Positions 1 to 17,581 of a stretch of DNA of 64,000 nt are shown here, in pieces. Under the pieces are notes generated by a model. The model saw only the letters and a program-made list of their open reading frames with translations. It ran no database searches and was not told the origin of the DNA. Within the stretch, counting starts at the first letter, position 1. Each line of letters opens with the position of its first letter. The position numbers and the translations under genes were made by a program. Where the stretch lies: contig OZ247587.1 in NCBI GenBank assembly GCA_965233865.1, positions 1,216,001 to 1,280,000 on the forward strand. The letters are read 5' to 3'. Source of the stretch: Candidatus Neptunichlamydia sp. (lineage in GTDB: Bacteria > Chlamydiota > Chlamydiia > Chlamydiales > Simkaniaceae).

Positions 1-380
1 TGTGATGCATTAGGTAATCCACTTGATTTTATTTTAACAGGTGGTCAAGCAGCTGATTGTCATCAAGCTAATCCTTTGCTCAAGGGTAGGGATTACAAAG
101 GATTATTGGCTGACAAAGGCTACGACAGCAATGCAATCATTGATCATGTAAAGAGCATCGGAGCTGTTGCCATCATTCCCTCAAAGAAAAATCGCATTGA
201 TCATCGAGAGCATGATAAAGACATATATAAAGAACGACACAAAATCGAATGTTTATTTGGCTTCCTCAAACATTATAGACGATTGTTTTCTCGGTTCGAG
301 AAGTTAGCATCAAGGTTCAAGGCATTCCTTCATTTTATCGCGGCTCTCCAATGGTTAAAGTAAATTTCTCAACACAACCT
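1..380 (+). mobile_element. IS5-family element, 3' part (transposase C-terminus 1-363 and right end)
   Basis: Frame 1 is open from base 1: CDALGNPLDFILTGGQAADC...LADKGYDS...YKERHKIECLFGFLKHYRRLFSRFEK, typical IS5 DDE motifs. It ends at ...CAACACAACC followed by TAG. Confidence 0.9.
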
Positions 381-398
381 AGTAAAATCTGAATAGCC

Positions 399-527
399 AA
401 AAAAAAGGGCCCCACAAGAGCAGCAGAGCCCGGTATAACTAACGAAGGAGTAGCTCAAGAAAGCAATCTCAAGGAGTAAGAAGATAAGATGAGCGAAGAT
501 GTTGCTTTCTTAAGCTGCGTTAGTTAT
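399..527 (-). ncRNA. Candidate structured small RNA: long hairpin plus intrinsic terminator
   Basis: Arms 435-444/518-527, 452-455/513-516 and 457-466/502-511 pair around a 27-nt loop. Minus-strand terminator GGGCUCUGC-loop-GUGGGGCCC-U8 uses G-U pairs that work only on the minus strand. Confidence 0.55.
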
Positions 528-603
528 GTAAGTGTAGTTGTGTTTTTGGTTGATGTTTCCCTCCATCTTCCAGTTTACCAGTTAACCTTTCCTGAAAATT
601 GCT

Positions 604-1730
604 TTACAGGTCCATTATAGAGTGATAAAGGTTGGTTTTCTTCTCCCCAAACAACCGGCGGAGCTGTAATTGATCTCTCATAGTGGTCTTTATCGGGCCA
701 GTTTTTGTTGCCGCCATTTTTGTAAACTCCCCAAAATCCTTTCTTCTATGTAGCGCATGGGTTAACTCATGAAACAAACCAGAAAAAGTATGGGGATTAT
801 TCTGCATTGTAATGTCTCCACTCCTACTCATACGGGGCTCATACACAGAACTGTCTCTGGGATATTGAGTACTCAATTCACGATTAGCTCTGTTATACGC
901 CCATCTAGATCCTGGAACAACAGGTATTCGATCAAGCCCGTTAGATACTTGAGTTAATTCATGAGCTCTTTGAACTTTCCCATGGTGTTAAATGGTAAAG
1001 AATCCCATTCGTCTTCAATAGCCTCTCTTGCGGAAGATTCCTCGGCATCTAGATCCTGCCTCTCTTTTCTTAATCGCTCTTGATTGTTATCATCTGCAAA
1101 TTCATAAAAACGGGTGGGTTGTTTTGAGTATAATCCGAAAGGAACAAACTCTTCTCTTTCATTAATTTCAGTTTCTCTTGGCCTCAAAGCAAAAGGAAAA
1201 AATTGCTCGCCTTCACCTAGATCAGTAGTCCTTGGTTCCAACTTAAACGGAAGAAATTTTTCACTTGAAAAACTCAATAGACTTTTTTGGTCGTATTCTT
1301 TATCAAACTTTTCAAATTCATTTGATCGATCTTTCTTAAGGAGAGCACGTTCAAATCTTTCATCAGACAGGATTTGATTCAAGCTTGTTTTTTCTTGTGA
1401 TGGTTTTCCTTCATGTAAGTCATAAGGAAATTCTGTGCTAATACTTGGTCTTTTTTTGTGTTCTGGAACCGCTTGTACTACATCAAAAGGGCTTCCCCAC
1501 TCACTTTCAATTTGGTCTCTTTCCTCCAATTCTAATAAAGTAAGAGGAATTGTGGTATGTGGCGCGGACCTTAATAGATCTCCAAGGCTTCGATCTGTTT
1601 CATTATTGACAATAGCTTCCCTTGCTGCTTTTTCTTCTTGAGACAGTAAATACTTTTCTCTTTCTCCAGGTCGCAGCCTTCTACTTAACTGATTTAAAGG
1701 CAGCATATTATGCTGGAATTGGTATGTCAC
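604..1730 (-). pseudogene. RING-partner protein with C-terminal HExxH (HELTH) motif, frameshifted
   Basis: ORFs 954-1754 and 604-876 are one continuous frame in the paralogue starting at 63003. This copy lacks 97 bp between two ATGAAT repeats. The GTG start at 1730 overlaps the RING gene end. Confidence 0.8.
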
Positions 1731-2190
1731 TTGCTTTTTCCTTTTTAAATACATCAGCTATTTTCTTAAATACGTTTACCATTCCCATGATAGAAGCGCA
1801 TGGAAATGTTCCATTTTTAGGAGAGAATTTCCACCTGCAAGTTGGGCATGTTAATCCATTGGATTTCCTAATGCCTTCAGACCCACCAGATATTTCCATT
1901 ATTTTTTCTAGTGTTGATTGATTGAATGTATGACAACATGCGGTAACTAATGGTTGATGTAAAGGCTCCATAGTAACAGGGTCTAGAGCATCAGGAGGAA
2001 GTTCCTCACAAAGAGGTCTTAGCTCTTCTACGATCTTATCATTCAACGTCTTTTGAGCTTTTACTTCCCGCATTTCCACTTCTTGAGACCTCAACTGCTC
2101 TCTCATTTCGAGTTCTTGAGTTTTGAGTTGCTCGCGGATGAATTTTTCAAAGTAAATGGTGTTATTCTGAATGCTTAATATGGCTGTCAT
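1708..2190 (-). CDS. RING/U-box-like protein (leader A, RING type alpha)
   Basis: IVEELRPLCEELPPDALDPVTMEP...CCHTF...CPTCR. Start moved to MTAILS, behind AGAGGA RBS and TGTTATAAT. Confidence 0.85.
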   Translation of the reverse strand: MTAILSIQNNTIYFEKFIREQLKTQELEMREQLRSQEVEMREVKAQKTLNDKIVEELRPLCEELPPDALDPVTMEPLHQPLVTACCHTFNQSTLEKIMEISGGSEGIRKSNGLTCPTCRWKFSPKNGTFPCASIMGMVNVFKKIADVFKKEKASDIPIPA

Positions 2191-2380
2191 CTTGTTTATC
2201 CTCTTACCTTTATTATAACATACTCTGCACGGAATCATTGAATGAAATCGTTCAAAATCAAAAATATTTTAGACCTTCGTTTCATAAAAATTCAACGCTT
2301 GCTGCTTACTGGATTTATATTTGCTGGTAAAGCTACAAAGGGCTAAAATGAGAATTAAACGAAAACAATGGATGATAATC
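2191..2380. promoter_or_regulatory. Class A bidirectional promoter (copies at 3387-3576, 48308-49776 IS-split, 61177-61366, 62355-62544)
   Basis: Minus strand: extended -10 TGTTATAAT at 2212-2220. Plus strand: TTGCTG-N17-TAAAAT at 2321-2349. Confidence 0.75.
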
Positions 2381-2695
2381 ATGGACTGGACGCAAGCACT
2401 TACTGTTATAGGAGTTTTCATTGGTGGGTTTATCTACATGATGAACAAAATGGACGCAAATAAGAAAGACACTGATACAAAAATGGAGTCTCATCAAAAA
2501 GAAAATAACACACGCTTTAATGGCATAGAAAACCGTCTAACTGCCATGGAAGTAGAGGTCAAAAACATCAATCAAAGAATCGATGACTTTAAGCATGAAA
2601 CAAACCAAAGACTCTCTACGATTGAAGGGTATCTAGTCCCAAAGAAGGTATTTCGCTTTGAGGAAACTAAAGACGAAGAACCCAAAGAGAACTAA
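2381..2695 (+). CDS. Small protein, N-terminal TM plus coiled coil (MDWTQ family, copy 1)
   Basis: WTQALTVIGVFIGGFIYMM hydrophobic helix then heptad-rich region; 5 near-identical copies in the window. Confidence 0.8.
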   Translation: MDWTQALTVIGVFIGGFIYMMNKMDANKKDTDTKMESHQKENNTRFNGIENRLTAMEVEVKNINQRIDDFKHETNQRLSTIEGYLVPKKVFRFEETKDEEPKEN

Positions 2696-2767
2696 GACAT
2701 CTATCATTCTAACTGATAATGAAATGCTACAAAAACTTCAGGAATCTTTAGAGCTAAGATTCGATGA

Positions 2768-2950
2768 TCAGTTTGCGTCATCTGGGTTTGTAAGAGCGCT
2801 TTGTAAGCTTGAACTTCTTGTTTTAGAAGAAAATGCTCCAGTAGGTATTTGGCTAAAGTCTTCAAAACGAGTTGGAGCAAGAAGGTGTTCTTGAGGTAAC
2901 GCATTTCCCTCAGATTCATAAAAAAATGGGTGTTGAGAGCTAGTTGACAT
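2768..2950 (-). pseudogene. Truncated RING-partner ORF ending TNPDDAN
   Basis: Start overlaps the RING stop. Homologous to 61824-61967; TNPDD also occurs in the papain-like partners. Confidence 0.5.
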
Positions 2951-3386
2951 GTTTATTGAAAGCCACGCTTATATTTTTTAATGTATTTGTGCAGTTATCT
3001 AAAGAAAAACAAGCATAGGTTTGTTTTAGTGGGGTTTTTGCCTTGCAGCTTGGGCATTCCATTGCATCTTGCTGACATAAGCCATTGGCTTTTGCTAAAC
3101 TAACGATGGTTGTGATATTTAATGTATGCCCACACCTAAAAACCATTCCTCTATCTAGTGGCTCCATAGTAACAGGATCCAAGGCGTCAGGAGGTAGTTC
3201 TTCGCAAAGAGGTCGCAATTCCTCAACTATCCTATCGTTCATTGTCTTTTGAGCTTTCATTTCGCGTATTTCAAGCTCTCGATCTTTTAATTCTGCTCGT
3301 GCTTCGAATTCTTGAGTTTTGAGTTGCTCTCGAATGAATCCTTCAAAGTAAATGGTGTTATTCTGAATGCTTAATATGGCTGTCAT
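2940..3386 (-). CDS. RING/U-box-like protein (leader A, type beta)
   Basis: Constant block, then CGHTLN...CPSC. Confidence 0.85.
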   Translation of the reverse strand: MTAILSIQNNTIYFEGFIREQLKTQEFEARAELKDRELEIREMKAQKTMNDRIVEELRPLCEELPPDALDPVTMEPLDRGMVFRCGHTLNITTIVSLAKANGLCQQDAMECPSCKAKTPLKQTYACFSLDNCTNTLKNISVAFNKHVN

Positions 3387-3576
3387 CTTGTTTATCCTCT
3401 TACCTTTATTATAACATACTCTGCACGGAATCATTGCATGAAATCGTTCAAAATCAAAAATATTTTAGACATTCGTTTCATAAAAATCTAATGCTTGCTG
3501 TTTATTGGATTTATATTTGCTGGTAAAGCTACAAAGGGATAAAATGAGAATTAAACGAAAACAATGGATGATAATC

Positions 3577-3879
3577 ATGGACTGGACGCAAGCACTTACT
3601 GTTATAGGAGTTTTCATTGGTGGGTTTATCTACATAATGAACAAATTGGACTCCCATCAAAAAGAAAACAATACCCGCTTTACTGCAATAGATAATCGCT
3701 TTAATGGCATAGAAAACCGTCTCACTGCCATGGAAGTTGAAGTTAAAAACATCAATCAAAGAATCGATGACTTTAAACATGAAACAAGCCAAAGGCTCTC
3801 TACGATTGAAGGGTATCTAGTCCCAAAGAAGGTATTTCACTTTGAGGAAAATAAAGACGAAGAACCCAAGGAAAACTGA
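3577..3879 (+). CDS. MDWTQ-family TM/coiled-coil protein (copy 2)
   Basis: Paralogue of 2381-2695 with a TAIDNRF heptad insertion. Confidence 0.8.
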   Translation: MDWTQALTVIGVFIGGFIYIMNKLDSHQKENNTRFTAIDNRFNGIENRLTAMEVEVKNINQRIDDFKHETSQRLSTIEGYLVPKKVFHFEENKDEEPKEN

Positions 3880-4007
3880 GCCTCTAGTATGCTAACTGAT
3901 AATGAAATGCTACAAAAACTTCAGGAATCTTTAGAGCTAAGATTCGATGATCAACGGGATTTATTCATAAGAGAGGACGATAGCAGCACTGGGCAGTTGT
4001 TACTTTT

Positions 4008-4493
4008 TTAGCAGAGCCTATCTGAAAAAAATTTCCCAGTTTCAATACTCCCTACTAAGGAAGTAGCATCACACAATTCCTTTATAGGATACTTTAACTG
4101 TTCATCTAATGGCAGCTTCCCCACTTTCCATGACTTTTTCCCATCCCAAAGCCACCATATCTTATCGAGGGGATCTCTCTTAGGCATACTGTTTGTTCCC
4201 TTGAATGTAGGAAATTCTTGAGCAAACACTGGAATTGAGAGGTTCTCTATAAACTTAACGGCCTCTTCTTTGATAGCACGCTGTAAAAAACAAAAAGTCT
4301 GAAACCTATGTGGTCTGTCTCCAGATTTTTGAATCTCTTCAAGCGACGGTCTTGTTTCGTAAAACCCATCAAAAACACGAATTAAACTGCCCCACTTTGG
4401 TGGTTTTGTATACTCATGAGTGTATTGAAAGTAAGCTAAGCCTTTTTGAGTTTGAATTTCATATACATCGCCGATCTTTTTTCGCCTAGTCAT
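4008..4493 (-). CDS. Imm26-like immunity protein (allele 1)
   Basis: KIGDVYEIQTQKGLAYFQY...LIRVFDGFY pattern; ATGA overlap with the upstream toxin stop at 4490-4492. Confidence 0.65.
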   Translation of the reverse strand: MTRRKKIGDVYEIQTQKGLAYFQYTHEYTKPPKWGSLIRVFDGFYETRPSLEEIQKSGDRPHRFQTFCFLQRAIKEEAVKFIENLSIPVFAQEFPTFKGTNSMPKRDPLDKIWWLWDGKKSWKVGKLPLDEQLKYPIKELCDATSLVGSIETGKFFSDRLC

Positions 4494-6639
4494 TCTAAAA
4501 TCTCCTCTATCCCATCATACTTGATTTCCTTTAATATTTCAGCTCCCCTAGATATAGAATCAGCATATTTTGGGTTTTTCTCTGATATACTGTTAATTTT
4601 ATTGGAAAGTGTGCCCCCATTTTTCTCTAGTTTGTGCATTTCAATCAAGGCTTGCTCGACTGCTCTTGCATCATATTTTGTTAGGTTTGTTGCTCTCGCT
4701 ATCTCTCTTACTCTATGGTGGTCCCAGACGTCAAGACCAAAATTTGCAAAAGTTAAGCTAGTTTTTCCTGATGTTAAATTCAGTTCTTATTCCTTCTTTA
4801 GACCTCAAGGCCTGTTCCATAATAGATCTCTGACGGCGTCTGATATCCCAAACTCTGGTGACGGCGCTGTCCATTATAAAACTCAAAATACACCTCTAGT
4901 CCCTTTTTTAGTTCTTTAAGGCTTTCATACCCTTTAGGATAAATATCCTCATACTTCACACTTCTCCAAAGACGCTCTATGAAAACATTATCAAGAGCTC
5001 TCCCTTTCCCGTCCATGCTGATTTTCACACCCTCTTTTTCTAATCTCTTAGTGCCGTGTACTTTTTTTTAAGCCATTCCAGCTCCATTTTTAGCCTTCCA
5101 ATTTGCTCAAATAACTCTCCTTTTTCCTGCTCCTCTTCTTTGGTAATCAAACGCTTATTGCTTTTCTCAAAAATTTGGGCTGCCGTGGCTTTAAAGTGTC
5201 TTTTCCACCCTCCAAGGACTAAAGGGTGAACTTCAAATTTCCCAGCAAGCTCTCCTGCCGTTTTCTCTCCTTTCAAAACTTCAAGCACCACCTTCAGCTT
5301 AAATTCAGCGGAATATTTTTTTCTTGTTTTTGCCATTTCTGTTCTCCTTTTGCTCGGAGAAAACTAGCTTAGCAAGTGGCTCGAATTTCTGGGACCATTA
5401 TACTCTGATTCCCTTTTTTAAAAGGTGTTCCAACTGCCTTCTAGATAGATTATTGGTAATCCCAACATACTTCACTTCTCCAGTGGTTTCATTGAAAGAT
5501 CTGTATACCGAGATATTCCCCTGCTCCCTAACTACAGGAGTCTGAACTTCAACTTGTGGCGTATTTGCTCTAGGGATTGGAGGATTCGTTGTAGTAGTCG
5601 TAGTCAGAGCACTTCCCGCAGCACCAGTAATAGCCATACCTTTTACAACACCAGAAGCTTTTGCAACTTTAACTATGGCCTTTGCACTCTTCGCGATCTT
5701 AGCAGGCTTACTTAATTGGCTACCAGGAACCGGCACAAAACAAAATACTACGTCCTTGCCAAGTTCTTTGAGTAATTCTCCCATAGTTTCAGGAGTTGAA
5801 GAAGATTTAAAGCTGCCATATTGTCCGGCGTAGTCAGTATTAAAAGACTGGTCTATCTTATCATGCAGACGATCGCTAAACGGAACCACGTCATTGCTAA
5901 AGAATTCATCGAAAGGCTCCCTTTTTGGAGGGTAATCATCGTATAAAAAGGAACTCATTTTTCCTAAAGATTCGACAAAGTTAGCTGTTCCATCAACGAA
6001 ATTATGAACAACATAAGAGCCAACCTTTCGCGCTTTTTCGGCTGCTTGTGACCAAAACGAAGCTTCGTCTTTCTTTGGAATATTTAAGTTATTTGCAGCT
6101 AGCACAGGTTCTTGACTGAGCTCTTCTTTAAGAGTGGTGTTTTGTCTTTCGATAGTTTCTTTTAGGAGAGCACTTTTCTCGGGTATCGGCTCTAATTGTG
6201 GAGTGATCTTTGGTATTAAAGCTTCTATTTCTTTCGGTCGATCATAGTCACAATGGCTTGGATAATAGGGATCGTTAAACGAATCAGCGTGAGGTTCTTC
6301 TTCATAAATCTCCCCAGCCTTATTTACAGGTGTTCGTGGTTTGGGATTGTTTTTTGGATTCGTTTCTCCATTGGCATCATAATCTACAGCAGCAGCTCCC
6401 GCAGCAATAACAGGCGCAGCAGCTCCACTTGTAGCGATGATAACCACAGTTGCAGCAACTACAACAACAGCTGAGATAATCACTACCTTTTTGTTTCTTT
6501 TGACGAATTTCTTAGTGCTTTTCCATGTGTTTGATACCCAACTGCAATTGATAATCTTTAGAGATTGATACCCATTTAATACCGCAGGAACAGCCTTAAC
6601 GCCGTAATCTTCATATCTTTTAGGGACGACCACCACCAT
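4490..6639 (-). pseudogene. Polymorphic toxin with C-terminal GIY-YIG-like nuclease, IS-interrupted
   Basis: VYRSF...YVGITNNLSRRQLEH. Removing IS 4714-5402 and one CTC restores the frame to ...ARAVEQALIEMHK...IEEILE*. Confidence 0.8.
4714..5402 (-). mobile_element. Internally deleted IS3-family element (689 bp)
   Basis: Ends TATAATGGTCCCAGA / TATGGTGGTCCCAGA; 3-bp TSD CTC; orfA joined to the orfB tail near 5050. Confidence 0.92.
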
Positions 6640-6861
6640 CCTCCGTTTCCCTCATTACATTCGCATTAAAAGCTAATTCTGAATTATTTGGTTCTCCTCT
6701 AAGCCATTTGATGTCTTCTTCGAGTTGAGCCTTAGCTTCAAGATCGTCGTCGCGAATGCCATTTCTAGCCAAGAAAATGACAAACTCCATGACTTGACTG
6801 GTCTGTGCTTCAGTTAGGTGCTTTTCTAAGGTGTTGCCATAAGCTACTTCATAAAGGAAAT

Positions 6862-7428
6862 CTATGATGTGCTGATAGGAAAGAGTTTCGTAATTGAGTA
6901 AGTCCCAAGGCGAAAAGTTTGTGTAATCGCCTTCAGAATGGCCTTGAGATACCTTCCAAAGTGAGCTTTTTGTAGATAATTTAAGAGCTTTCTTCTTGCA
7001 AAGACATATCTTACTAAGAGCGCTCTCATGCCTAAGAACTCCTTAGTTTCCTTATCAACGCCATGCATGTCTATTTCTAGTCTTTGAATTTTTTCGGTAT
7101 ATACGCCAATCCCTACATCACATGAAGAATTGTCCTGAGGAGATGTTTGCCACCGTTTGATGATGTCGCGCATGTCAACAATGTTAATACTATCAACCGT
7201 GCTTGATTTATTAGAAAGAGGCTTGCCTTTCTTGACTCTACTCGGAGGGACAAAATTTCGGATGGTTTTTTCGCAGTAGAAATTCTTGCCACTTACTTTC
7301 TTGCTTGGTTGAAAAACTCCTTTAGAAAGATAGCCTTTGAATGAATCTATAGAACAGCCAATGATCTGCGCTGCTTGCTTGGTGCTGATTAACTGACTTG
7401 TTTGTTGCGATTGTGTTTTCTCTGACAA
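6862..7428 (-). CDS. HTH (excisionase/MerR-like) - ribosomal protein S15-like fusion
   Basis: LISTKQAAQIIGCSIDSFKGYLSKG HTH, then DIIKRWQ..QDNSSCDVGIGVYTEKIQRL...ARRKLLNYLQKAHFGRY, which aligns by eye with uS15. TTG start at 7428 is inferred. Confidence 0.65.
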   Translation of the reverse strand: MSEKTQSQQTSQLISTKQAAQIIGCSIDSFKGYLSKGVFQPSKKVSGKNFYCEKTIRNFVPPSRVKKGKPLSNKSSTVDSINIVDMRDIIKRWQTSPQDNSSCDVGIGVYTEKIQRLEIDMHGVDKETKEFLGMRALLVRYVFARRKLLNYLQKAHFGRYLKAILKAITQTFRLGTYSITKLFPISTS

Positions 7429-7529
7429 GCTCTCACTTCTCTTTCTTAAAAAAGAAAGATATTTCCATAAATCACGGTTTAGGAACAAGCTTTTCGTAAG
7501 CTGTCTTTGCAGTAATTTGCTCGGCTGAA

Positions 7530-7956
7530 GATTTGTAAGAAGCATGGTTTAACGTACAAGACTGTGGCTTATGAGTTCGAATATCAAGAAGAAGCTGAAA
7601 TCTAGATGATCGACAACCAATGCGAGATAAAACGAAACATAACTGAATTCTGCAGAGGGAGATACGCTCTTTTGAAGAAAGAAAGGATTTTATCTCTTAA
7701 TAAGAAAAAAGCCGATGAGGGTAAGAAGAAAGGTGGAGAAAATGGTAGTATTTATTTTAATAAGTCTGCCCCAACATTGGGGCATACGTTTTCTAAAAAA
7801 GATTTGATAGAAGATCCTGCAGACAGAAACTACTCTGAAAACACGGATCGTTTACTCGCAAAAGATGCTGGTTTGTCTCATGGTACGATGCATACACCTA
7901 AGAAAAAACTTCCTCTTCCCCCTTTTTCAGCAATAAGGGTTTTTAAGGCAACCTGA
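7530..7956 (+). pseudogene. Phage/plasmid ParB-N-associated HTH protein remnant
   Basis: ICKKHGLTY...EFEYQEEAEI*MIDNQ..KRNITEF...TDRLLAKDAGLSHGT; in-frame TAG at 7603-7605. Confidence 0.5.
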
Positions 7957-8264
7957 TAGCATGAAAAACAAATTGAATATGGATCTTTACTGTTGCTAAG
8001 GTCCAAAAGGCTGTATTTTGACAATTTAGGCATTTCTTTTTCAGATGGTGTTTTTTCTTGAAAGGGCGCTTCAATAATCTCACCGAATGGCGTTGTTTTG
8101 AGGGAAAGACTAGCATAACGAAGAATTTTTGGAAGACTCACAAAAAACAAGGCTCAGATTTGCGCTGTGTTGCGCTGTTGGAGATTTAGAGTTGTGTTGG
8201 GATTGCGAGAAGATAAATCAGCTTAAAACGTGATTAAATGAGAATATGCGTGTTTAAGTATAAT

Positions 8265-8301
8265 TAGTTGGGATTTGGAAGGCTTTAATGTGAATTTAGT
8301 T
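8265..8301. repeat. 37-bp cassette-end motif (copies at 11564-11600 and, inverted, 58294-58330)
   Basis: TAGTTGGGATTTGGAAnGnTTTAATGTGAATTTAGTT lies just downstream of partner-gene stops. Confidence 0.85.
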
Positions 8302-8318
8302 AAAGTTTACGAAAAATA

Positions 8319-9473
8319 TCAAGTTCCAAAGTGACTATTGAAGGTGTTAAATAATTCTGGTCTATTTGCAAAGCGCCCTTGTCCAATAAGAATATCTCGA
8401 AGTGATTCATTTACTTGTTCTCCATCATCATCAAATTGGGGGTAATCGTCCTCAATTATTGATTTAATAAACCCTTTCCCACGCAACATATGACCTGGAT
8501 GGAGATTTGCATAGTTTTCAACTGTGTCTTGGAAGTTTTCCTCCCAAAGACCTGAATTTATTCCAATATGACCGAGACGAGGACGTTTACCAAATTCTCT
8601 CCTAGCTGCATTCTCGTCATTTTCTATATTTCTGGCCTCTTCTAGGTCTGAATATAATGATGGAATTCCAGATGGATGAATCATTGGCAATGGAATAGAT
8701 CTTCTGTTTATGGACTCTTGAGGATCTTTTAAAAAGGATCTTTGGTGGCCGTGTTCATGAAGCAAGTCATCTACAGTTCTTGGTTGTTTACCATAGAACG
8801 TACGTCCTTCATAATCATGACGCATTCTTGTGGAATCTTCTGATTCTTCCTCGTCACTAGGAAATAAAAGTTCACCGCTATTAAGTTGTGATTGAGTAAA
8901 TGGTCCCTTCTTTCCAGGAGGTTCGTATATCTCTAGATGATGTAAGGGCTCCGTTCCGTATCCAGTAACCATGTCTTTTTGCTCGAATTGTCCATCTGCT
9001 CCTTGCTTAACTCCGAAACCAAACCTATTACTGTGCGAGAATGGTAGCTTTGATTTTTGATGTTTTTCTATGTCATCCAGTAAAACTTTAAAATAACTTG
9101 GAGCTCCCTTAGATGCTATTCTTGCATCTTCCATAATCGCGTCTTTATCTTCAGAGTCATCAGTGAAGTCAAATAAAGATTCATATTTACCTGTCAATAC
9201 GTCTGAAAGAGATCCCCTGGATCTAGCTTCGGGAAGAGGGATTTTGTCTTTTCTTAGTGGCTGTTCACCTGAAAAATACTCCGTAGAATTCGCATCAAAC
9301 AGGGGTATTTTACTTTTTCTAAGTGGAGCTTCTTGATCAGGAGAATCGATATACACAACGTTTTTTCTTATTGAGCGAGAAGGATCAACGTAAACTACAT
9401 TTTCTCTTTTTGTATCCCTTTTTTGCCTCTTGAGATCCCAACGATGCTGTTTTCTTCTTAGGTTGTGCTTCAT
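8319..9473 (-). CDS. RING-partner, M91/NleD-like zinc metalloprotease
   Basis: LLHEHGH...E...ENAARREFGKRPRLGH; basic N-terminus; 89-bp overlap with the RING gene. Confidence 0.65.
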   Translation of the reverse strand: MKHNLRRKQHRWDLKRQKRDTKRENVVYVDPSRSIRKNVVYIDSPDQEAPLRKSKIPLFDANSTEYFSGEQPLRKDKIPLPEARSRGSLSDVLTGKYESLFDFTDDSEDKDAIMEDARIASKGAPSYFKVLLDDIEKHQKSKLPFSHSNRFGFGVKQGADGQFEQKDMVTGYGTEPLHHLEIYEPPGKKGPFTQSQLNSGELLFPSDEEESEDSTRMRHDYEGRTFYGKQPRTVDDLLHEHGHQRSFLKDPQESINRRSIPLPMIHPSGIPSLYSDLEEARNIENDENAARREFGKRPRLGHIGINSGLWEENFQDTVENYANLHPGHMLRGKGFIKSIIEDDYPQFDDDGEQVNESLRDILIGQGRFANRPELFNTFNSHFGT

Positions 9474-9921
9474 TATTTTCTACCGTTCTTTTAAATATTT
9501 TTGTTACTTTTTCAAGATGTTCTACCGTTTCGTCAAATGACTGGTCATATAAGAAAAACCGCCCCGTTGTTTCAGATCTACAAATCGGACAAGGGATTTT
9601 ATCGTCCATTGTGAAGCCCTTTGTTTTTCCAATCATTTCTACAGCTTTCGCGCTTAAAGCATGGCTACAACGCATCACTAAAGGAGTTCTAATTGGTTCA
9701 TACGTCACTGGATCTAAAGCACATTCAGGCAATTCTTCACATAAAGGCCTAAGCTCTTCAACTATCCTATCGTTCATTGTCTTTTGAGCTTTCATTTCGC
9801 GTATTTCAAGCTCTCGATCTTTCAGTTCTTCTCGCATCTCAGATTCTTGTGTTTCCAGTTGCTCTCGGACGAACTGTTCAAAGTAAATAGTGTTGTTCTG
9901 AATGCTTAATATGGCTGACAT
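9385..9921 (-). CDS. RING/U-box-like protein (type gamma)
   Basis: Constant block, CSHALS...CPICR; AAGGAG RBS. Confidence 0.85.
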   Translation of the reverse strand: MSAILSIQNNTIYFEQFVREQLETQESEMREELKDRELEIREMKAQKTMNDRIVEELRPLCEELPECALDPVTYEPIRTPLVMRCSHALSAKAVEMIGKTKGFTMDDKIPCPICRSETTGRFFLYDQSFDETVEHLEKVTKIFKRTVENNEAQPKKKTASLGSQEAKKGYKKRKCSLR

Positions 9922-10963
9922 ATTGTTCTCCTTGGGGTTTACCTGCAAAAGCTGTGTTATAGCCTAGCCTAGTTGGTTGTATCTGTTCTCCCCTTTCATC
10001 ATTCTCTTGAATTCCTTGAAATGTTTTCATCACATCTTCTAACCAGCTTTTTGAGAATTTCCCATCGCCTTTTACTGAGCTCCAAAGAGAGCGTACTGGG
10101 TAATTATTTCCTTTTCTCGTTATAAAAACATGGTCTTCTGGCCTATCTTCATTGGCAAAAACAGTTGTCCCATCTGGAAGATCAAAATCTTGTAATTTAT
10201 TATAGTCGATTTCGCCACGATTTCCAGGCGGATTTAAAACATCTATAAGCCTTTCACCATAGGAAAGGCTGTATTTTCCAGGTTCTGTAGCTCTTTGAAG
10301 GCGTTCTTGTACTTCTTCTTTTTTCAGCTTGCCTCTTGAGATTAAGTCATAGCAAACCCCTTCAGCACAGTTCATCGTCTTTGGTTTTGAGCCTTTTTCG
10401 CTGTTATGGTCACTTCCATACTCGTCTGTAACCCACCTTCCAAACGGTCTGGAGGAATAATCTTCATGGTCAGCAATAGGACCCCAGGCTACGTTCTTGT
10501 AATATTCAGAGTCATCTGGGTTTGTGAATGGTGTTCCTGGTTCTGATTCTCTTGAAGAGATTTGATCAAAAAGTCCTTCTTCAAACTCTCTATATTGCGG
10601 TTGTAGAGCAGAATGCAAACTCTGACTATCTGGAATCTGATCAAACATTTCCTCTTCTAACCCTCTGAATCGAGGTAGAGTCTGTAATAGATTTATTTGA
10701 GAATCTTCTAGCTCTAAGCTAGCATCATATCCATATGGAAAACCAATATTACGGTTTGGTTCCTCATCTGAATCATAGTCCGGTGCATTTTTTGTAGGCA
10801 TGGGTGTTTTATAGATAGTTGAAGTAGGTCGAAGAGGTGGAGGAGGTACTGGCCTGTATGAATATTCTCTAAGAGTTGCCATCCACTTTGCCATATCAAT
10901 AGGCTGGTCTCCCATTTCTGGATCATATCTAGCAAACTGCTTTTTTCTATAATTACTCGGCAT
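9878..10963 (-). CDS. RING-partner with papain-like Cys/His domain
   Basis: MNCAEGVCYDL...DHVFIT...VRSLWS; paralogues at 57606 and 58937. Confidence 0.6.
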   Translation of the reverse strand: MPSNYRKKQFARYDPEMGDQPIDMAKWMATLREYSYRPVPPPPLRPTSTIYKTPMPTKNAPDYDSDEEPNRNIGFPYGYDASLELEDSQINLLQTLPRFRGLEEEMFDQIPDSQSLHSALQPQYREFEEGLFDQISSRESEPGTPFTNPDDSEYYKNVAWGPIADHEDYSSRPFGRWVTDEYGSDHNSEKGSKPKTMNCAEGVCYDLISRGKLKKEEVQERLQRATEPGKYSLSYGERLIDVLNPPGNRGEIDYNKLQDFDLPDGTTVFANEDRPEDHVFITRKGNNYPVRSLWSSVKGDGKFSKSWLEDVMKTFQGIQENDERGEQIQPTRLGYNTAFAGKPQGEQYVSHIKHSEQHYLL

Positions 10964-11354
10964 ATTTTTTAAAGATTCCGCTTATTTTTTTAAAAATTTC
11001 CACACAACCTTCTATAGGAATATATGGGTAAAGCATGTTGATTGTTGTTGAGGAGTTGCAAGATGGGCATTTTATTAAATCCTGCTTGTATAGCTTTTGT
11101 GTTTTAGCAATGCTCACAACTGTAGAAAGATTCAATGCGTGACCACACCTATATACTATACTTCTGTCTAAAGGCTCAAAAGTAACAGGGTCCAACGCGT
11201 CTGGAGGTAGTTCTTCGCACAAAGGCCTTAGTTCTTCAACAATCTTGCTATCTCTTGTCTGTCGTTCTTTATATCTCTCTTCAAACAATTCATCAATCGA
11301 CATTGTTTGTGTTGCGACAGTAGTGCTGTTTTTTGGTGTGATTGATATGCTCAT
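10953..11354 (-). CDS. RING/U-box-like protein (leader B1, type beta)
   Basis: MSISITPKNS leader, constant block, CGHALN...CPSC. Confidence 0.85.
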   Translation of the reverse strand: MSISITPKNSTTVATQTMSIDELFEERYKERQTRDSKIVEELRPLCEELPPDALDPVTFEPLDRSIVYRCGHALNLSTVVSIAKTQKLYKQDLIKCPSCNSSTTINMLYPYIPIEGCVEIFKKISGIFKKYAE

Positions 11355-11560
11355 CTTGTTCTCCTTGTGTCTATTATAACACATTTTGCACTGAATCGTG
11401 GCATGAATTCTTGTGTTTTTAAAAAATTTTTCATGTAGAAATGCAGGGAGTATATCATGATAGGAATAACACGTATTTTGAATTTTTGATTCGTGCGCAA
11501 ATCCGCCTGACCAAGAATAAAAAAAGAATGCTTTTTAGGGGTGGCCCCCTTTTTAAGGGT
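11355..11560. promoter_or_regulatory. Class B bidirectional promoter/leader repeat (also ~13082-13195, 17985-18183, 53332-53440, 56522-56720, 58335-58539; partial 55915-55985)
   Basis: TGTTATAAT plus AAGGAG toward the RING gene; divergent TTCATG-N17-TATCAT at 11430-11458; AGGGG-TGGC-CCCCT-T4 hairpin at 11537-11554. Confidence 0.75.
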
Positions 11561-11687
11561 AACTAGTTGGGATTTGGAATGTTTTAATGTGAATTTAGTT
11601 CAAATTGATAAGCTGAGTTTTCCAACAACAAATACAACTCCAAAACTATTTTAGCACATGTTTTTGAGAAGCTTGTATCAGGCATGA

Positions 11688-12605
11688 TCATCTTTGAATA
11701 GTGATTTCTTGTTTTGGGTGTCTATACCGAGGCATACGCATGATATCAGAGTGGTCAACGTCACTTCCTAGCGCGTCCCACAGAGTGCCAATATTTGGAA
11801 AATCAGAGCCAAATTCATCCTCTAAATTTTTTTCTTCTTCTAACTCAAACATACTCAATGGACCACTGTTTTTAATTAACCGCTCCGATTTTTCTAAAAA
11901 ACCATCCCAAGCTCTTAAATTTCTTTCTGTTGGGATTTGTTTTCGTTCTGTATCCATAAATTTGTAGGTTTCATTTTGTAAATCTACAGGTAGATTATTA
12001 CCTATTTTTCCTAGCAACGCAGACCTTAGGGTGCCTCTATTTATTAAAGCGTCCTGTAAGTTGCCGTTTGAGGAACCGTGATCAGCTTCAGAAAGAAAAC
12101 TAATCTCATCAGAACCAGTATCTTCTGGTTGGAATAGTGGGTCTCGAACAGACCCCACATCAGAATCATTGTCGTTCACTCCTGAAAATCCAGGGAATGC
12201 ACGATACTCAAGGGCAGGATAATTATTGTCATCTATTAAAAAATTTGGCTTTTCCTTGAAATCCCTTAAGTCACCCCAATTATATTCCTTTGGTAATGAT
12301 TCGTATCTTCTACGAGATCTTTCGTAGTTTTTTAATCCTTTATAAGAGCTTCTGTCTTCATGAACATGTCGTGGAATGTAAGTTGGCGATAGACCACCAT
12401 CTTCCTGAATTTCTTCTAATCCAGTTTCTTTAGTAACAAAATCTCTTAAGAGCCCTTCATCGTAATGGGATAAAAAATCAAATGTTTGAGGAGAGGGAAG
12501 ATCTGTGAAAGTATTAGCATAAGCGGCAACATCAGGAATGTCATTGTAACCATAATCTCTAATATCTATTTTTCTACGTTTAAGATTTCCCATTTTCAGC
12601 CTCAA
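11688..12605 (-). CDS. RING-partner, acidic low-complexity hypothetical protein
   Basis: 305-aa ORF; TTGA overlap with the RING stop; KRRK near the N-terminus. Confidence 0.7.
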   Translation of the reverse strand: MRLKMGNLKRRKIDIRDYGYNDIPDVAAYANTFTDLPSPQTFDFLSHYDEGLLRDFVTKETGLEEIQEDGGLSPTYIPRHVHEDRSSYKGLKNYERSRRRYESLPKEYNWGDLRDFKEKPNFLIDDNNYPALEYRAFPGFSGVNDNDSDVGSVRDPLFQPEDTGSDEISFLSEADHGSSNGNLQDALINRGTLRSALLGKIGNNLPVDLQNETYKFMDTERKQIPTERNLRAWDGFLEKSERLIKNSGPLSMFELEEEKNLEDEFGSDFPNIGTLWDALGSDVDHSDIMRMPRYRHPKQEITIQR

Positions 12606-13081
12606 ACTGTTAGTTTGTTTTTGTCGAAAACATTTTTTATTCTTTTTATAATTCCCACTGTCTCTCCAAAAGATTGGTCATAAAATAGGTGGTTTATTTT
12701 TGAATCCTTTCTGCAAAGAGGACATTCTATATTTAAGTCACTTCTACTTCTTTTTTTTGATTCGAAGATTGATTTGATGGTATCTTCATTAAATGTATGT
12801 CCACATCGTGTTACTCTAGGTCGTTCCAAAGGCTCAAACGTAACAGGATCTAAGGTGCAATCGGGAAGCTCTTCACACAGAGGTCTTAATTCTTCTACGA
12901 TTTGGTCATTCCTTGTTTTTTGAGCTTTTATCGATTCTAGGTTTTCTTGCATCCCTCTCATCTCATCTTCTCGATCTTTCAGGTCTGCTCGCGCTTCTGT
13001 TTCTTGCGTTTCCATTTGAGTACGCATCGCTTGTTCAAAATAAGTGATAGTGTTGCTTTTTGTATTTGCTATGACGGACAT
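12602..13081 (-). CDS. RING/U-box-like protein (leader B2, type zeta)
   Basis: Constant block, CGHTFN...CPLCR. Confidence 0.85.
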   Translation of the reverse strand: MSVIANTKSNTITYFEQAMRTQMETQETEARADLKDREDEMRGMQENLESIKAQKTRNDQIVEELRPLCEELPDCTLDPVTFEPLERPRVTRCGHTFNEDTIKSIFESKKRSRSDLNIECPLCRKDSKINHLFYDQSFGETVGIIKRIKNVFDKNKLTV

Positions 13082-13290
13082 CTTGTTCTCCTTGTGTCTA
13101 TTATAACACATTTTGCGCTGAATCGTGGCATGAATTTTTGCTTTTTTAAAAAATTTTTCATGTATAAATGCAGAGAGTGTATCATGATAGGAATTAAGGT
13201 AAAATCCATCGAACAGTCAGGTGATTTTCCAAAACCTCCTCCAAATAGAGTAAAATTCATCTTATAAATGAACGTAATAGGAAGAAAATT

Positions 13291-13701
13291 ATGAGTACGA
13301 TAACAGCAACAACAAGCACACAAACATTGTCTTTTGATGAAATCGTTGAGCAAGCGATTCAAGAACGGCAGTTAAAAAGTGATGAATCTTTTGAAGAATT
13401 AAGGGAGCACATTTGTGATTACTCTCCAACATTAGGATATGATCCGATCACTAATGAACCATTGATAGAAGAACCTCTTCAGATACGGTGTGGTCACGTG
13501 TTTAATAGAAATACTTTTATCAAAGAATTTAAGAAAATTCCAAAAGAACAAAAAGATCCAGAAAAACAGGAGTGCTTTGTATGCAAAAAAACTTATTCTG
13601 CTCGCTGTGCTTGGTCTAACTTTTCAACAGAAAGTGCTATGAGATATATAATAAAAACAAAGGAACTATTTAAAACATATGCCGCCAAAATACAATTTTA
13701 A
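13291..13701 (+). CDS. Divergent RING/U-box-like protein
   Basis: YDPITNEPL..P..IRCGHVFNR...CFVC. Confidence 0.8.
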   Translation: MSTITATTSTQTLSFDEIVEQAIQERQLKSDESFEELREHICDYSPTLGYDPITNEPLIEEPLQIRCGHVFNRNTFIKEFKKIPKEQKDPEKQECFVCKKTYSARCAWSNFSTESAMRYIIKTKELFKTYAAKIQF

Positions 13702-13811
13702 TGGTCTTCAAACTCTAGAAGAAGAAAATCCGGAAGAAGAAGCACAAGACTTTTGGAATGTTCAGAAAGAAGACATGGGTTAGAAAGAAATTTAGTTCCA
13801 GAGAATAGACT

Positions 13812-14303
13812 ATGATAACAGCAAGCTGTTCTACACAGACAGAATACTCAATCCAACAATTGTATTATAAATCTCCAAGAAAAGCTTGGGAGCCAATTAT
13901 TGCAACTGGGATTTTCAAAAAAAAAGATGCAGAATCTCAAACAATTGAGACTGGGATTAACCAAAAATTAAAACAAGTATTTAAATTAAAAATAAAAAAT
14001 CATGATAAATCAAAAGATTCAGAATCTCAAACATATGCATTTCCAGTCTTGATGGGTCTATATCAACACATGATAGATCAGAAAGCATCTAAGATAAATG
14101 GAAAGGTCGAACACATAAGTAATAAAGAGTTAACAGATCCGATAACGCTTTCATGTAGCCATATTTTTAACAAAAAAACGATTGAGAATATCGAATCTGC
14201 GCGTCATTTCATGCACGAACGAAATGTTGAACCTCTAGAAGATTACCCAAAAATACCATGCCCAGCATGTAATAGATTATTAAACGCAAAGGAATATATA
14301 TAA
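13812..14303 (+). CDS. Divergent RING/U-box-like protein
   Basis: ELTDPITLSCSHIFNKKTIE...CPAC. Confidence 0.75.
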   Translation: MITASCSTQTEYSIQQLYYKSPRKAWEPIIATGIFKKKDAESQTIETGINQKLKQVFKLKIKNHDKSKDSESQTYAFPVLMGLYQHMIDQKASKINGKVEHISNKELTDPITLSCSHIFNKKTIENIESARHFMHERNVEPLEDYPKIPCPACNRLLNAKEYI

Positions 14304-14506
14304 TGTCATTACCAGCTCAGAACCTTTTAAATGATTTAGGGTTAACACAGGAACAGTACGATGTTTTTTTACGTGATCAAGAAATAGCGGAAAGGATCAT
14401 AGTGAATTATCCTTTATTTTGGGCAACATATGGTATAATGAACGCAAGAGGAAGAAGTTATGAGTATGATAACAGCAACAACAAGCACACAAACATTGTC
14501 TTTTGA
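14303..14506 (+). CDS. Short RING-coupled hypothetical protein (probably truncated)
   Basis: TAATG overlap with the RING stop. Confidence 0.4.
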   Translation: MSLPAQNLLNDLGLTQEQYDVFLRDQEIAERIIVNYPLFWATYGIMNARGRSYEYDNSNNKHTNIVF

Positions 14507-15990
14507 TGAAATCGTTGAACAAGCAGTTCAAGAGAAACAACGTGATAATGATGTGCTTCTTGAAAAAGTAAGGCATGAGGTATGTGATTTTGAGCCCATG
14601 CTAGGTTATGATTCTGTTACAGGCAAGCCGTTAACCTATAATGGTCCCAGAGATTCGAGCCACTTGCTAAGCTAGTTTTCTCCCGATAAAAGGAGAACAG
14701 AAATGGTAAAAACAAGAAAAAAATATTCCGCTGAATTTAAGCTGAAGGTGGTGCTTGAAGTTTTGAAAGGAGAGAAAACGGCAGGAGAGCTTGCTGGGAA
14801 ATTTGAAGTTCACCCTTTAGTCCTTGGAGGGTGGAAAAGACACTTTAAAGCCACGGCAGCCCAAATTTTTGAGAAAAGCAATAAGCGTTTGATTACCAAA
14901 GAAGAGGAGCAGGAAAAAGGAGAGTTATTTGAGCAAATTGGAAGGCTAAAAATGGAGCTGGAATGGCTTAAAAAAAAGTACACGGCTTTGAGTTAGCTCT
15001 GAGAAAATCTCTTATAGATGCAGGTGATACTGAGCTATCACAGAGAAAGCAGTGTGAGCTTCTGGGATTAAGTAGATCGACCCTATACTACGTTGAGAAC
15101 ATTCCTAAAAAAGAAGACTTAGACTTAATGAAAGCAATTGATAAAGAATATCTTAGAAACCCATTTTATGGGAGACGTAGGATGACATTAGAAATGCGCG
15201 ACCAAGGATTTTTCGTTGGAGAAAAAAAAGTCAGGACTGCCATGAAAAAAATGGGATTAGAAGCGATTTACCCAAAGCCTAATTTGAGCAAGCCACATCA
15301 GGAGCACAAGAAATATCCATATTTGATGAGGTCTGTAAAGGTAGACCGTTCTGACCAAGTGTGGGCTGCAGACATCACGTATATTCCGCTTCAAGGTGGA
15401 TTTGCATATTTATTTGCAATTATTGATTGGTACAGCAGGTTTATCCTTGAATGGGAGCTCTCAAATCTCCTTGATACAGATTTTTGCATAGAGGCTTTGG
15501 AAAGAAGTTTGAAAAAAAACTGCCCAGAAATTTTCAATACAGATCAGGGAGTGCAGTTCACAAGCTTGTGCTTTACTAAGAGATTAGAAAAAGAGGGTGT
15601 GAAAATCAGCATGGACGGGAAAGGGAGAGCTCTTGATAATATTTTCATAGAGCGTCTTTGGAGAAGTGTGAAGTATGAGGATATTTATCCTAAAGGGTAT
15701 GAAAGCCTTAAAGAACTAAAAAAGGGACTAGAGGTGTATTTTGAGTTTTATAATGGACAGCGCCGTCACTAGAGTTTGGGATATCAGACGCCGTCAGAGA
15801 TCTATTATGGAACAGGCCTTGAGGTCTAAAGAAGGAATAAGAACTGAATTTAACATCAGGAAAAACTAGCTTAACTTTTGCAAATTTTGGTCTTGACGTC
15901 TGGGATCACCATAATGTTTATCTAGACCTTACAATGCGATACGTTATGAAAATAAAAGGAGTATTTAAAGACCATGCCGCCAAAACATAG
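14460..15990 (+). pseudogene. RING-like paralogue of 13291, interrupted by IS3 with the RING core lost
   Basis: N-terminus MSMITATTSTQ...YDSVTGKP precedes the IS. Only the tail MRYVMKIKGVFKDHAAKT* follows it; no TSD. Confidence 0.7.
14637..15913 (+). mobile_element. IS3-family element, full length (orfA 14703-14996, orfB to 15772)
   Basis: Terminal IRs, A8G slippery site at 14970-14978, DDE motifs WAADITY/FNTDQG/ERLWRSVKYE; amber stop at 15770. Confidence 0.95.
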
Positions 15991-16107
15991 TTTACACGGA
16001 CTACCAGCACATTTACGTTCTATGGCAGAAGATGCTATGCCAGATACGAGGCATCCACCACCTGCATATACTACAAGCAGAATAAATCCAACCCTTGAAG
16101 GAGAAGA

Positions 16108-16326
16108 TTATGGCCTTACTATTGTTCCGTCGCTTTTAATTTCATAGCAATAGTGAACTTCAGGTTTTTCAAATGTTTTGCCACAGATAGGACATGTCCA
16201 AGAAGGAGCTTCTTTTTTGCGAGAGGATTCTTTCACAGTTTTAATGTCTTTAAAATCTTCACTCGCTGCGTTTAATATTCCCAAGAATGACAATGACAAA
16301 ATGATTTTAGTAGTGAATTTTAACAC
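16108..16326 (-). CDS. Small secreted protein with WTCPIC motif
   Basis: Signal-peptide-like N-terminus; motif shared with 21867-22226. Confidence 0.6.
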   Translation of the reverse strand: MLKFTTKIILSLSFLGILNAASEDFKDIKTVKESSRKKEAPSWTCPICGKTFEKPEVHYCYEIKSDGTIVRP

Positions 16327-16358
16327 AATGTTTTTCCTTTAGATTAGCTGCTTGAGGT

Positions 16359-16592
16359 TCAATCTAAAATGCCGTTAAGATCATCAAGACCTAAGACTTC
16401 TTGAATTTCATGAGGGTCCATATTCTTTTCAACAAGCTTTCTTGCAATGTATTTTAAGCGATTTTCTTTTTCTAGTTCTTTCTCCAGCTTCAGAAAATTT
16501 AATTCTTCTTTAAGGCCTGCGTTCTCAATGGCCGAAATTTTTAAATAATCTAATTGAGCTTGTGCTATTTCGTTTTCTACATATGGGTCCAT
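16359..16592 (-). CDS. Small hypothetical protein resembling the C-terminal tail of Rpn/PD-(D/E)XK proteins
   Basis: IARKLVEKNMDPHEIQEVLGL. Confidence 0.45.
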   Translation of the reverse strand: MDPYVENEIAQAQLDYLKISAIENAGLKEELNFLKLEKELEKENRLKYIARKLVEKNMDPHEIQEVLGLDDLNGILD

Positions 16593-16645
16593 GATGTTCT
16601 CTTATTTAAATTGGTCATGGGATTTACTTATAGCATAGAATTTGT

Positions 16646-17581
16646 TTACTCGAAGTTATTTATATAAAACCATCGCATCCAACCTCCTCTTCTTTGAGGT
16701 GCTTTAATGTTTTGCCGTTGATTCTCCTTCAGCTGGCGCCTCTCTTCTAGGAAATCTTGATCTTTAAATAAGTGCCCTGGATATTGCCTTTGAATCGGAA
16801 AAATTGCATTATTGAAGCTGTTTTGATCAGGCTTTTCCTGCCACCCAAAATGTCCATATCTAACGGGGAGACCAGCTTCTTCCCTAAAAGCATTTTCTGT
16901 AACTTCTCCCTTTTTAAAATCTCCTCTTTTACCTATGACTTTTATCTCATTGGTGTTGCTGTAGAATGGAATATTAACTGCATTAGGAGAGTAATTTCCC
17001 TGTTTTTTGTCTAAGATATGCTTTGCTTCATGAGCAAAAGAAATGTGATTTGGTCTTTCAATAGGAATCATCTCTCTCTCTTTTGAATGCCTGCCAACAA
17101 CATATCCAGAGTTAGAGTTCATGGAAATTTCATTGTCTCCAGCTTCCCAATCTCTTTTGGTAACATCTATTTTTGGTGGTGAAAATTTAGCAAGAGCACC
17201 TGCTAGACTATTTGTTGTTTGAGGGGATCTCATAGATAAAACCACTCCATGATTATGCATATCTTTTTCAAGTCCTTCCTCTACGTTAAATAGAGATTGA
17301 AAATTAAGAAATGTTTGAAGTTCTTGAGGGTAGTTCTGAGAGTCTCTGATTATATTTTTTCTGTTTTTTAATTCTGCTTTCATTACGTCATTGAGAGATT
17401 TATAATTTTGTAGAGGAAACATTGATTGGCGAGTAGAGTAGTCATCTGAACCAACATAGATTGTGTGTTTCCTTTTTGCTTCCCGAGGAGCATCAACGCG
17501 AACTGTATTTACTCTTACAGGTTCTTTTTTTTGTCTTTTTAGACCCGAATGAGGCTGCTCTTTTCGTCGATTTTTCTTCAT
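16646..17581 (-). CDS. RING-partner, M91/NleD-like zinc metalloprotease
   Basis: FAHEAKHILD...NEIKVIG...TENAFREEAGLPVRYGH; 89-bp overlap with the RING gene. Confidence 0.75.
   Translation of the reverse strand: MKKNRRKEQPHSGLKRQKKEPVRVNTVRVDAPREAKRKHTIYVGSDDYSTRQSMFPLQNYKSLNDVMKAELKNRKNIIRDSQNYPQELQTFLNFQSLFNVEEGLEKDMHNHGVVLSMRSPQTTNSLAGALAKFSPPKIDVTKRDWEAGDNEISMNSNSGYVVGRHSKEREMIPIERPNHISFAHEAKHILDKKQGNYSPNAVNIPFYSNTNEIKVIGKRGDFKKGEVTENAFREEAGLPVRYGHFGWQEKPDQNSFNNAIFPIQRQYPGHLFKDQDFLEERRQLKENQRQNIKAPQRRGGWMRWFYINNFE

Follow-up and report, generated by a model that had tools for sequence, protein, structure and literature searches.

A hairpin and terminator module at the 3' ends of putative two-gene effector operons in a Candidatus Neptunichlamydia genome, and the likeness of its loop to RING gene start regions

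Introduction

What is the role of a long hairpin that stands next to a transcription terminator and carries in its loop the complement of a translation start? This question is raised by positions 399 to 527 of the 64,000-nt stretch analysed here (the window), which corresponds to positions 1,216,001 to 1,280,000 of contig OZ247587.1 from Candidatus Neptunichlamydia sp. (assembly GCA_965233865.1). The initial annotation of this locus proposed a trans-acting small RNA (sRNA), possibly derived from a 3'-UTR, whose loop would be antisense to the ribosome binding site and start codon of a family of RING genes and could silence translation of the whole family. To our knowledge, almost nothing is known about RNA regulation in environmental chlamydiae. 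If the loop regulates, it would be a 3'-UTR-borne anti-Shine-Dalgarno (anti-SD) element controlling effector genes in such an organism.

Results

A long hairpin followed by a strand-specific terminator

Three copies of the module described below are present in the 1.83-Mb single-contig genome. Copy 1 is that of the window, where its operon runs from 2190 to 399. RNA folding of the minus strand of window 395-535 gives two neighbouring folds, a long hairpin and then a terminator stem. The parts of copy 1 and its surroundings are as follows (window positions).

1-381, plus strand: right part of an 847-bp insertion sequence (IS) with a DDE_Tnp_1 transposase (Pfam, 3.4e-12)
399-431, minus strand: intrinsic terminator, with stem 423-431/407-415, loop 416-422 and U8 at 399-406
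435-527, minus strand: long hairpin of 92 nt (predicted fold)
518-527/435-444, minus strand: basal stem of the hairpin (predicted fold)
502-516/452-466, minus strand: upper stem (predicted fold)
445-451, minus strand: internal loop of 7 nt bearing the second exposed CUCCUU(C), unpaired probability 0.98
467-501, minus strand: apical loop of 35 nt (predicted fold)
528-571, minus strand: CA-rich 5' flank of the hairpin, conserved in copy 3, with which similarity stops at 571
572-603, minus strand: remaining 3'-UTR past the stop codon, in copies 1 and 2 only

Hairpin and terminator together reach -45.4 kcal/mol in the minus-strand RNA (z -5.88), a value equalled or bettered by 0 of 200 dinucleotide shuffles, and the same stretch of the plus strand gives z -2.44. 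The long stem described in the initial annotation is thus borne out, and the hairpin ranks first among the nested inverted repeats formed by the 25 pairs detected in the 64-kb window. Taken without the terminator it is of near-equal stability on either strand (-29.7 versus -30.0), so that only the terminator sets the strand of the element. This terminator follows about 3-4 nt past the hairpin and is canonical, with a GC-rich stem of 9 pairs (6 GC and 3 G.U), a short loop of 7 nt and a U8 tract, on the strand of the upstream gene. It is specific to the minus strand, as had been claimed, since its three G.U pairs become A.C mismatches on the plus strand, where there is no T-run. It is also the top terminator-like site of window 1-19000 and the sole strong one there; such sites are not enriched in these first 19 kb (11 observed versus 13.5 expected). 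The stop codon upstream of the hairpin lies at 604-606 on the minus strand, and the position of the element between this codon and a minus-only terminator fits the suggested derivation from a 3'-UTR.

The module closes two-gene units headed by a class A RING gene

Each of the three copies forms the 3' end of a unit of two genes, which lie on the same strand as the terminator and the first of which is always a class A RING/U-box gene. We call these units operons from gene order alone. The relevant features of operon 1 (window positions) and of the RING family (genome positions) are given below.

604-1754, minus strand: HExxH protein, decayed copy in three pieces with internal stops (fragments 954-1754 and 604-876)
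1708-2190, minus strand: class A RING/U-box gene, first in operon 1, true start ATG 2190-2188
2196-2220, minus strand: class A leader, with extended -10 TGTTATAAT at 2220-2212 and SD word GTAAGAGGATAA at 2207-2196
Genome 180-190 kb, 433-435 kb, 661-670 kb, 1215-1234 kb and 1263-1290 kb: RING clusters

The first gene of all three copies is preceded by the layout TGTTATAAT-AAAG-GTAAGAGGATAAACAAG-ATG. The TGTTATAAT promoter stands right before the SD word, and the class A 5'-UTR is therefore very short. The leaders of the RING cassettes carry the extended -10 TGTTATAAT 4-7 nt ahead of the SD, with predicted 5'-UTRs of about 15-20 nt; they are seen at window 2160-2220, 3356-3416, 11330-11400, 17960-18030, 58490-58550 and elsewhere. 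The starts placed further upstream in the list of open reading frames (MIPCRVCYNKGKRINK...) read through this promoter and are probably wrong.

The second gene is variable. In copy 2 it encodes an intact 464-aa HExxH protein, located just outside the window on the plus strand and carrying the zinc-protease motif HELTHALH, the counterpart of which is broken in copy 1. In copy 3 the second gene encodes a member of the 381-aa family, unlike those of copies 1 and 2. A paralogue of the HExxH protein (window 16646-17581) matches Peptidase_M91 ('Effector protein') at 24.6 bits with E 3.7e-5, just under the cut-off of 25, and the RING family has Pfam matches to zf-RING_UBOX/zf-Nse. Such pairs of RING and M91-like proteins presumably resemble the NleG/NleD effector sets of E. 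coli. When copies 3 and 2 are compared, their 773-bp 5' flank is 93% identical and the 158-bp 3' module 97% identical, whereas the intervening 1.6 kb is unrelated. In this effector cassette the middle has thus been swapped, and the module is the fixed 3' flank.

Genome-wide, 39 ORFs of the RING/U-box family fall into the five clusters listed above, and a class A RING protein used as query hits 32 places in this genome. Judging from these sequences, the family is a putative lineage-specific effector expansion. Several other ORFs of the arrays deserve mention. A 227-aa ORF in a cassette array (window 6862-7545, minus strand) matches Ribosomal_S15 at 35.6 bits (cut-off 31), and two 250-aa ORFs (genome 186900-187259 and 664069-664428) show weak, below cut-off RNase III-like matches at 21.8 bits; these ORFs may represent RNA-binding domains among the effector cassettes. 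In a 390-aa ORF (window 18620-19792, minus strand), a SAM-methyltransferase domain is joined to an rve integrase core; this is probably a host gene into which an IS3-type element has inserted or to which one has been fused.

Three copies, each at a rearrangement border

The mirror copy that had been predicted just past base 64000 is present. This copy 2 (genome 1280312-1280518, minus strand, window-equivalent 64312-64518) is 100% identical to window 414-620 and lacks the outer half of the terminator; its operon extends from genome 1278545 to 1280518. Copy 3 (genome 191417-191609, in an operon from 189585 to 191609) is 97% identical over window 379-571, with one substitution in the terminator, four in the stem and none in the loop. 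None of the four stem changes is compensatory and one of them has a neutral effect, giving U.G in the minus-strand RNA, these being few changes in one genome. Contigs from four sequencing runs covering window 382-1400 show only the copy-3 variant T506C and the copy junctions. A search for sequencing runs that contain window 382-2300 returned no RNA run.

The terminal inverted repeat of the IS, an element with about 15 copies at 96-99% identity in this genome, ends at about 381 and directly abuts copy 1. It marks a rearrangement, since the sequence on its other, left side shows no colinearity with copy 3. Copy 2 resembles copy 1 only from 414 onwards, within the terminator loop. There, a 381-aa ORF is fused to the module at a 7-nt microhomology, ACAAGAG (genome 1280512-1280518, window-equivalent 414-420), and runs through the 5' hairpin arm to a TAA at 477-479, thereby gaining a new 19-aa tail translated from that arm. 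This junction is a secondary fusion. Next to copy 3, an HU-type gene ends 3 nt short of the U-tract. This HU is 58-61% identical to the HU of all relatives and to the second HU of the genome; being an extra paralogue and not the core gene, it led us to drop a comparison of HU downstream regions across relatives. Copy 2 belongs to a large inverted repeat with arms of about 2.4 kb (window 414-2851 versus 61884-64518, the latter passing the window end), which are 91-100% identical in pieces. Homologous recombination between the arms could invert the 61-kb core, which holds T2SS genes, recA and mreC, among others.

Outside this genome, a DNA search with the module in 40 relatives, 16 of them of the same genus, returned chance matches only (best E 0.004). 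The exact 23-mer of the loop had no match in the collections of genome contigs and of metagenome contigs, and a loose 10-bp stem pattern retrieved at least 121 chance palindromes. One chance match of this loose pattern, in the Chlamydiia MAG contig CAWDOQ010000019.1, is an unrelated near-perfect palindrome with arms of about 38 bp. Protein queries with the 464-aa partner and the class A RING protein hit 0 of the 16 other genomes of the genus, and no relative of the partner was found in the metagenome contigs collection. By these searches, the whole system of module, RING family and partner appears to be lineage-specific.

The loop resembles a start region

Read on the plus strand, the apical loop carries AAGGAG (471-476) and, after a gap of 12 nt, ATG (489-491). 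The RNA of the minus strand displays ACUCCUU as well as the start codon's complement. Together with the internal loop it would present this heptamer twice, as the initial annotation had noticed, and both motifs are predicted to be unpaired (probabilities 0.92 and 0.98 in copy 1, 0.89 and 0.98 in copy 3). The doubling alone is unremarkable, since the five AAGGAGT pairs within 60 nt found in the genome, three of which are the module copies, represent three independent loci against about three expected by chance, the latter being our own estimate from motif density. The proposed likeness to two classes of RING starts holds at the level of words. The class A word GTAAGAGGATAA occurs five times in the window at RING starts, and the loop adds one occurrence with a single mismatch (6 matches versus 0.40 expected, five of these being paralogous leaders). 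For the class B word CAAGGAG-N6-ATGAG, the window has just three sites, at 11350, 17980 and 58527.

Pairing follows SD strength, and RING genes are not the top partners

For a genome-wide test, a set of 1747 starts was assembled with a crude and uncurated heuristic, which scored ORFs and codon usage and picked the start with the help of SD strength. Duplex energies were computed for the 35-nt minus-strand loop against the stretch from -25 to +15 around every start. The predicted duplex has -21.3 kcal/mol with the class A start, made of 12 contiguous pairs (one G.U) over the SD and 6 over the AUG, and -21.5 with the class B start. Shuffled loops seldom matched the real one (6 of 1000 for class A, 1 of 1000 for class B, 0 of 1000 for both), and the mean energy is -17.1 for RING starts versus -12.0 for other starts. 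The RING genes had been expected to rank top, which they do not: the best RING leader is at rank 32 of 1747, followed by 16 more at ranks 51-71. The class A value of -21.3 or better is attained by 53 of 1708 non-RING starts, and by 35 of the 473 non-RING starts with a strong SD. While 88 non-RING starts reach -20 kcal/mol, only 16 of the 39 RING leaders do so; the other 23 pair more weakly than class A and B, with class C and others at -7.8 to -17.8. When G.U pairs were forbidden, the six identical class B leaders took ranks 10-15 and class A ranks 58-75 of 1747, nine unrelated genes still outranking class B, including sucD and rho (both named by inspecting translations). The start of the rho-like gene (genome 1433876, minus strand) shares AAGGAG and a 12-nt identity, ATGAGCGAAGAT, with the loop and is its 3rd-4th partner, a likeness that is probably due to chance.

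Pairing energy tracks SD strength (Spearman 0.51), and the loop is therefore best described as a generic anti-RBS sequence. Against ordinary SD regions of comparable strength the RING leaders score marginally better (-16.5 versus -14.8 among strong-SD starts only, p 0.03, with paralogues that are non-independent). A reciprocal scan compared the class A and B leaders with 56,746 windows of 40 nt, mostly non-coding; the module was among the top 0.1-0.2% for leader complementarity. For the class A leader, 34 other windows equal the module in pairing, of which 12 are the antisense of RING leaders and 22 are unrelated, and for the class B leader there are 52 such windows. RNAcofold, which is unable to model loop-to-leader pairing, returned trivial end pairing only. 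The order of letters in the loop is clearly start-region-like, but neither unique nor family-wide to RING genes. Of the proposal that the loop is antisense to RING starts, the pairing with class A and B is thus retained, and RING specificity and family-wide cover are given up. Silencing of the whole RING family is not supported by the predicted energies.

Discussion

We propose that the element is a conserved 3'-terminal module of two-gene effector operons, with a structural role as the main one, and we give this reading a probability of about 0.5. Transcription of the minus strand would start from the TGTTATAAT promoter and proceed through the RING gene, the variable second gene and 76-150 nt of 3'-UTR. 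The 92-nt hairpin would then fold and transcription would stop at the intrinsic terminator, which would define the 3' end of the mRNA. The long stem-loop could block 3'-to-5' decay or act as a processing site. The module would also be the common downstream flank between which effector genes were exchanged. In favour of this reading are the statistics of fold and terminator, the position at the operon end in three of three copies, the fixed flanks, and a loop that is not RING-specific; its transcription and its stabilising role are inferred. Several observations count against the structural reading. The twin ACUCCUU motifs by the terminator exceed the needs of a mere stabiliser, no other segment of operon 1 is more complementary to the leader of that operon (-20.5), and the four stem substitutions of copy 3 are non-compensatory. 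Selection on the module is uncertain, since copy 2 lacks half of the terminator and copy 1 lies behind a pseudogene.

An anti-SD regulatory role, whether in cis in the manner of icaR or in trans, is doubtful when all its forms are taken together on the modelled duplexes. It could take the form of a regulator in the shared tail, whose two UACUCCUU loops would pair with class A leaders in cis and, after processing, with class B leaders in trans. This we hold to be somewhat more doubtful; if true, it would mean negative feedback on about 39 lineage-specific ubiquitin-ligase effectors in an Hfq-less chlamydia.

Pairing in cis, in which the 3'-UTR loop would bind the SD and start of its own class A gene, block initiation and offer a substrate to RNase III, is unlikely when considered separately. 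Every copy is in an operon headed by a class A leader and has its anti-SD motif between stop codon and terminator, as in icaR-type control, but the flanks of the three copies are common by descent, so that this co-occurrence is one event, and five of the eight class A genes have no module. The predicted duplex has 12 plus 6 pairs, and the loop is the best partner of its own leader in operon 1 and, up to the terminator, in operon 3. Such complementarity to the own leader (-20.5 to -21.3 kcal/mol) is however matched or bettered by chance in other 3.5-kb stretches, values of -17 to -25 arising within 3.5 kb of other class A units, and the 53 unrelated starts mentioned above pair as well. The genome has a gene for RNase III (117 bits), and precedents exist in icaR (PMC3868564) and hbs (PMC5737220), as far as the accessible parts of these reports describe them. 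No covarying changes are seen among the three copies.

The palindrome could instead have no RNA function and be a by-product or hot spot of array shuffling driven by IS elements and microhomology, carried along as a passenger. We consider this distinctly unlikely. Each copy does have a rearrangement border (the IS at 381, the junction at 414 in copy 2 and the break at 571 in copy 3), the module was not found in the 40 relatives searched, 16 of the same genus, and neighbouring genes are decaying. A passenger would hardly explain a canonical, strand-specific terminator placed exactly past a stop codon and 3'-UTR, nor a module kept at 97-100% identity while the middle of the operon was replaced.

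A trans-acting sRNA silencing RING cassette translation, transcribed alone or cut from the 3'-UTR, is improbable. Its layout would suit an sRNA, with a single-stranded CA-rich 5' flank, a stem-loop exposing C/U-rich motifs and a terminator, and the G.U-free ranks of class B (10-15) and class A (58-75), like the rarity of equally good shuffled loops (6 and 1 in 1000), are in its favour. Hfq was not found in this genome, and an Hfq-independent start-pairing sRNA, IhtA, is known in Chlamydia from the accessible part of one report (PMC4355289). Against it, the RING genes are not the top targets, only 16 of 39 RING leaders come to -20 kcal/mol, and pairing follows SD strength in general. The three copies are confined to one genome, one of them behind a pseudogene and another without a complete terminator. 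A consensus scan detected no promoter in window 528-620, where inspection by eye gave only a weak GAAACA-17-TACACT.

We give as little credence to the view that the plus strand of the loop is a start, or the dead relic of one, for ORF 489-620, with the minus-strand RNA as its antisense partner in the manner of a type I toxin-antitoxin or RNA-OUT system. The plus-strand loop exposes AAGGAG as well as ATG, and its minus strand looks like the antisense of an ordinary start region; in the reciprocal scan, most of the windows that pair equally well are antisense to real starts. The upstream ORF of copy 2 moreover stops between this SD and ATG. That arrangement is, however, the secondary fusion at the 7-nt microhomology. 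The ORF has 43 codons for amino acids in copies 1 and 2, with a hydrophobic N-terminal half, but it is cut to 9 codons by a TGA in copy 3 and its peptide contains no Lys or Arg. Its SD-to-ATG spacing is 12 nt versus 6-8 nt in RING genes, and no plus-strand promoter was found in the consensus scan. The conserved small hydrophobic ORF with a functional start that is typical of type I toxin-antitoxin loci is thus not seen here.

A CsrA-titrating RNA based on GGA motifs in the plus-strand loops was rejected, as CsrA (PF02599) was not found in this single-contig, 96% complete genome. A possible integron attC-like basal stem, noticed by eye (core about 6/7), was set aside, as the copies are not in an array.

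Returning to the structural reading, what we have mainly gained is a picture of the construction of effector cassettes in this genome, with a fixed flank of promoter, leader and N-terminus on one side, a fixed flank of hairpin and terminator on the other, and exchangeable genes between them. This layout will be useful for annotating such arrays and for understanding their shuffling.

Comparison with known RNA systems

In the icaR mRNA of Staphylococcus aureus, an anti-SD motif of the 3'-UTR pairs with the 5'-UTR of the same mRNA, according to the accessible part of the report (PMC3868564). As described there, that motif is, like ours, C/U-rich, located in the 3'-UTR before the terminator and complementary to the SD, here that of the first gene, and an RNase III gene is present in this genome too. 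The two are unrelated in sequence. Our motif is part of the loops of a 92-nt hairpin known from sequence alone and belongs to a two-gene operon, about 1.8 kb from the leader.

IhtA of Chlamydia represses by pairing around the start codon, independently of Hfq, in the accessible parts of two reports (PMC4355289, PMC3469542). The chlamydial host and the Hfq not found here either are points in common. IhtA is described there as conserved across Chlamydia with hctA and ddbA as targets, unlike our module, which is present in one genome and was read from its DNA.

An Rfam search with the module gave no family above threshold. The match to RF00519 (mmgR/suhB, alpha-r8) has 26.9 bits and E 0.0012, below the gathering score of 41. 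It covers a single-stranded motif rich in C and U and, after it, a GGGC...GCCC-U8 terminator. The module is not a member of this alpha-proteobacterial family, since the score is under gathering and the match rests mostly on the terminator. The enterobacterial 3'-UTR sRNAs CpxQ and SroC depend on Hfq and on RNase E processing sites. As in these, release of an sRNA made up of a stem-loop and the terminator of the mRNA itself is conceivable, but the genome of the module differs in that Hfq was not found in it.

A further likeness is to an ordinary rho-independent terminator with a stabilising stem-loop, with which the module shares a GC-rich 9-bp stem, a 7-nt loop, U8 directly after an operon and a long upstream hairpin. 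Unlike such a terminator, it has an upstream hairpin of unusual length, on which two identical anti-SD-like heptamers are exposed. On our best reading, hairpin and terminator are a further instance of this known kind of 3' end structure, with a loop that is not RING-specific.
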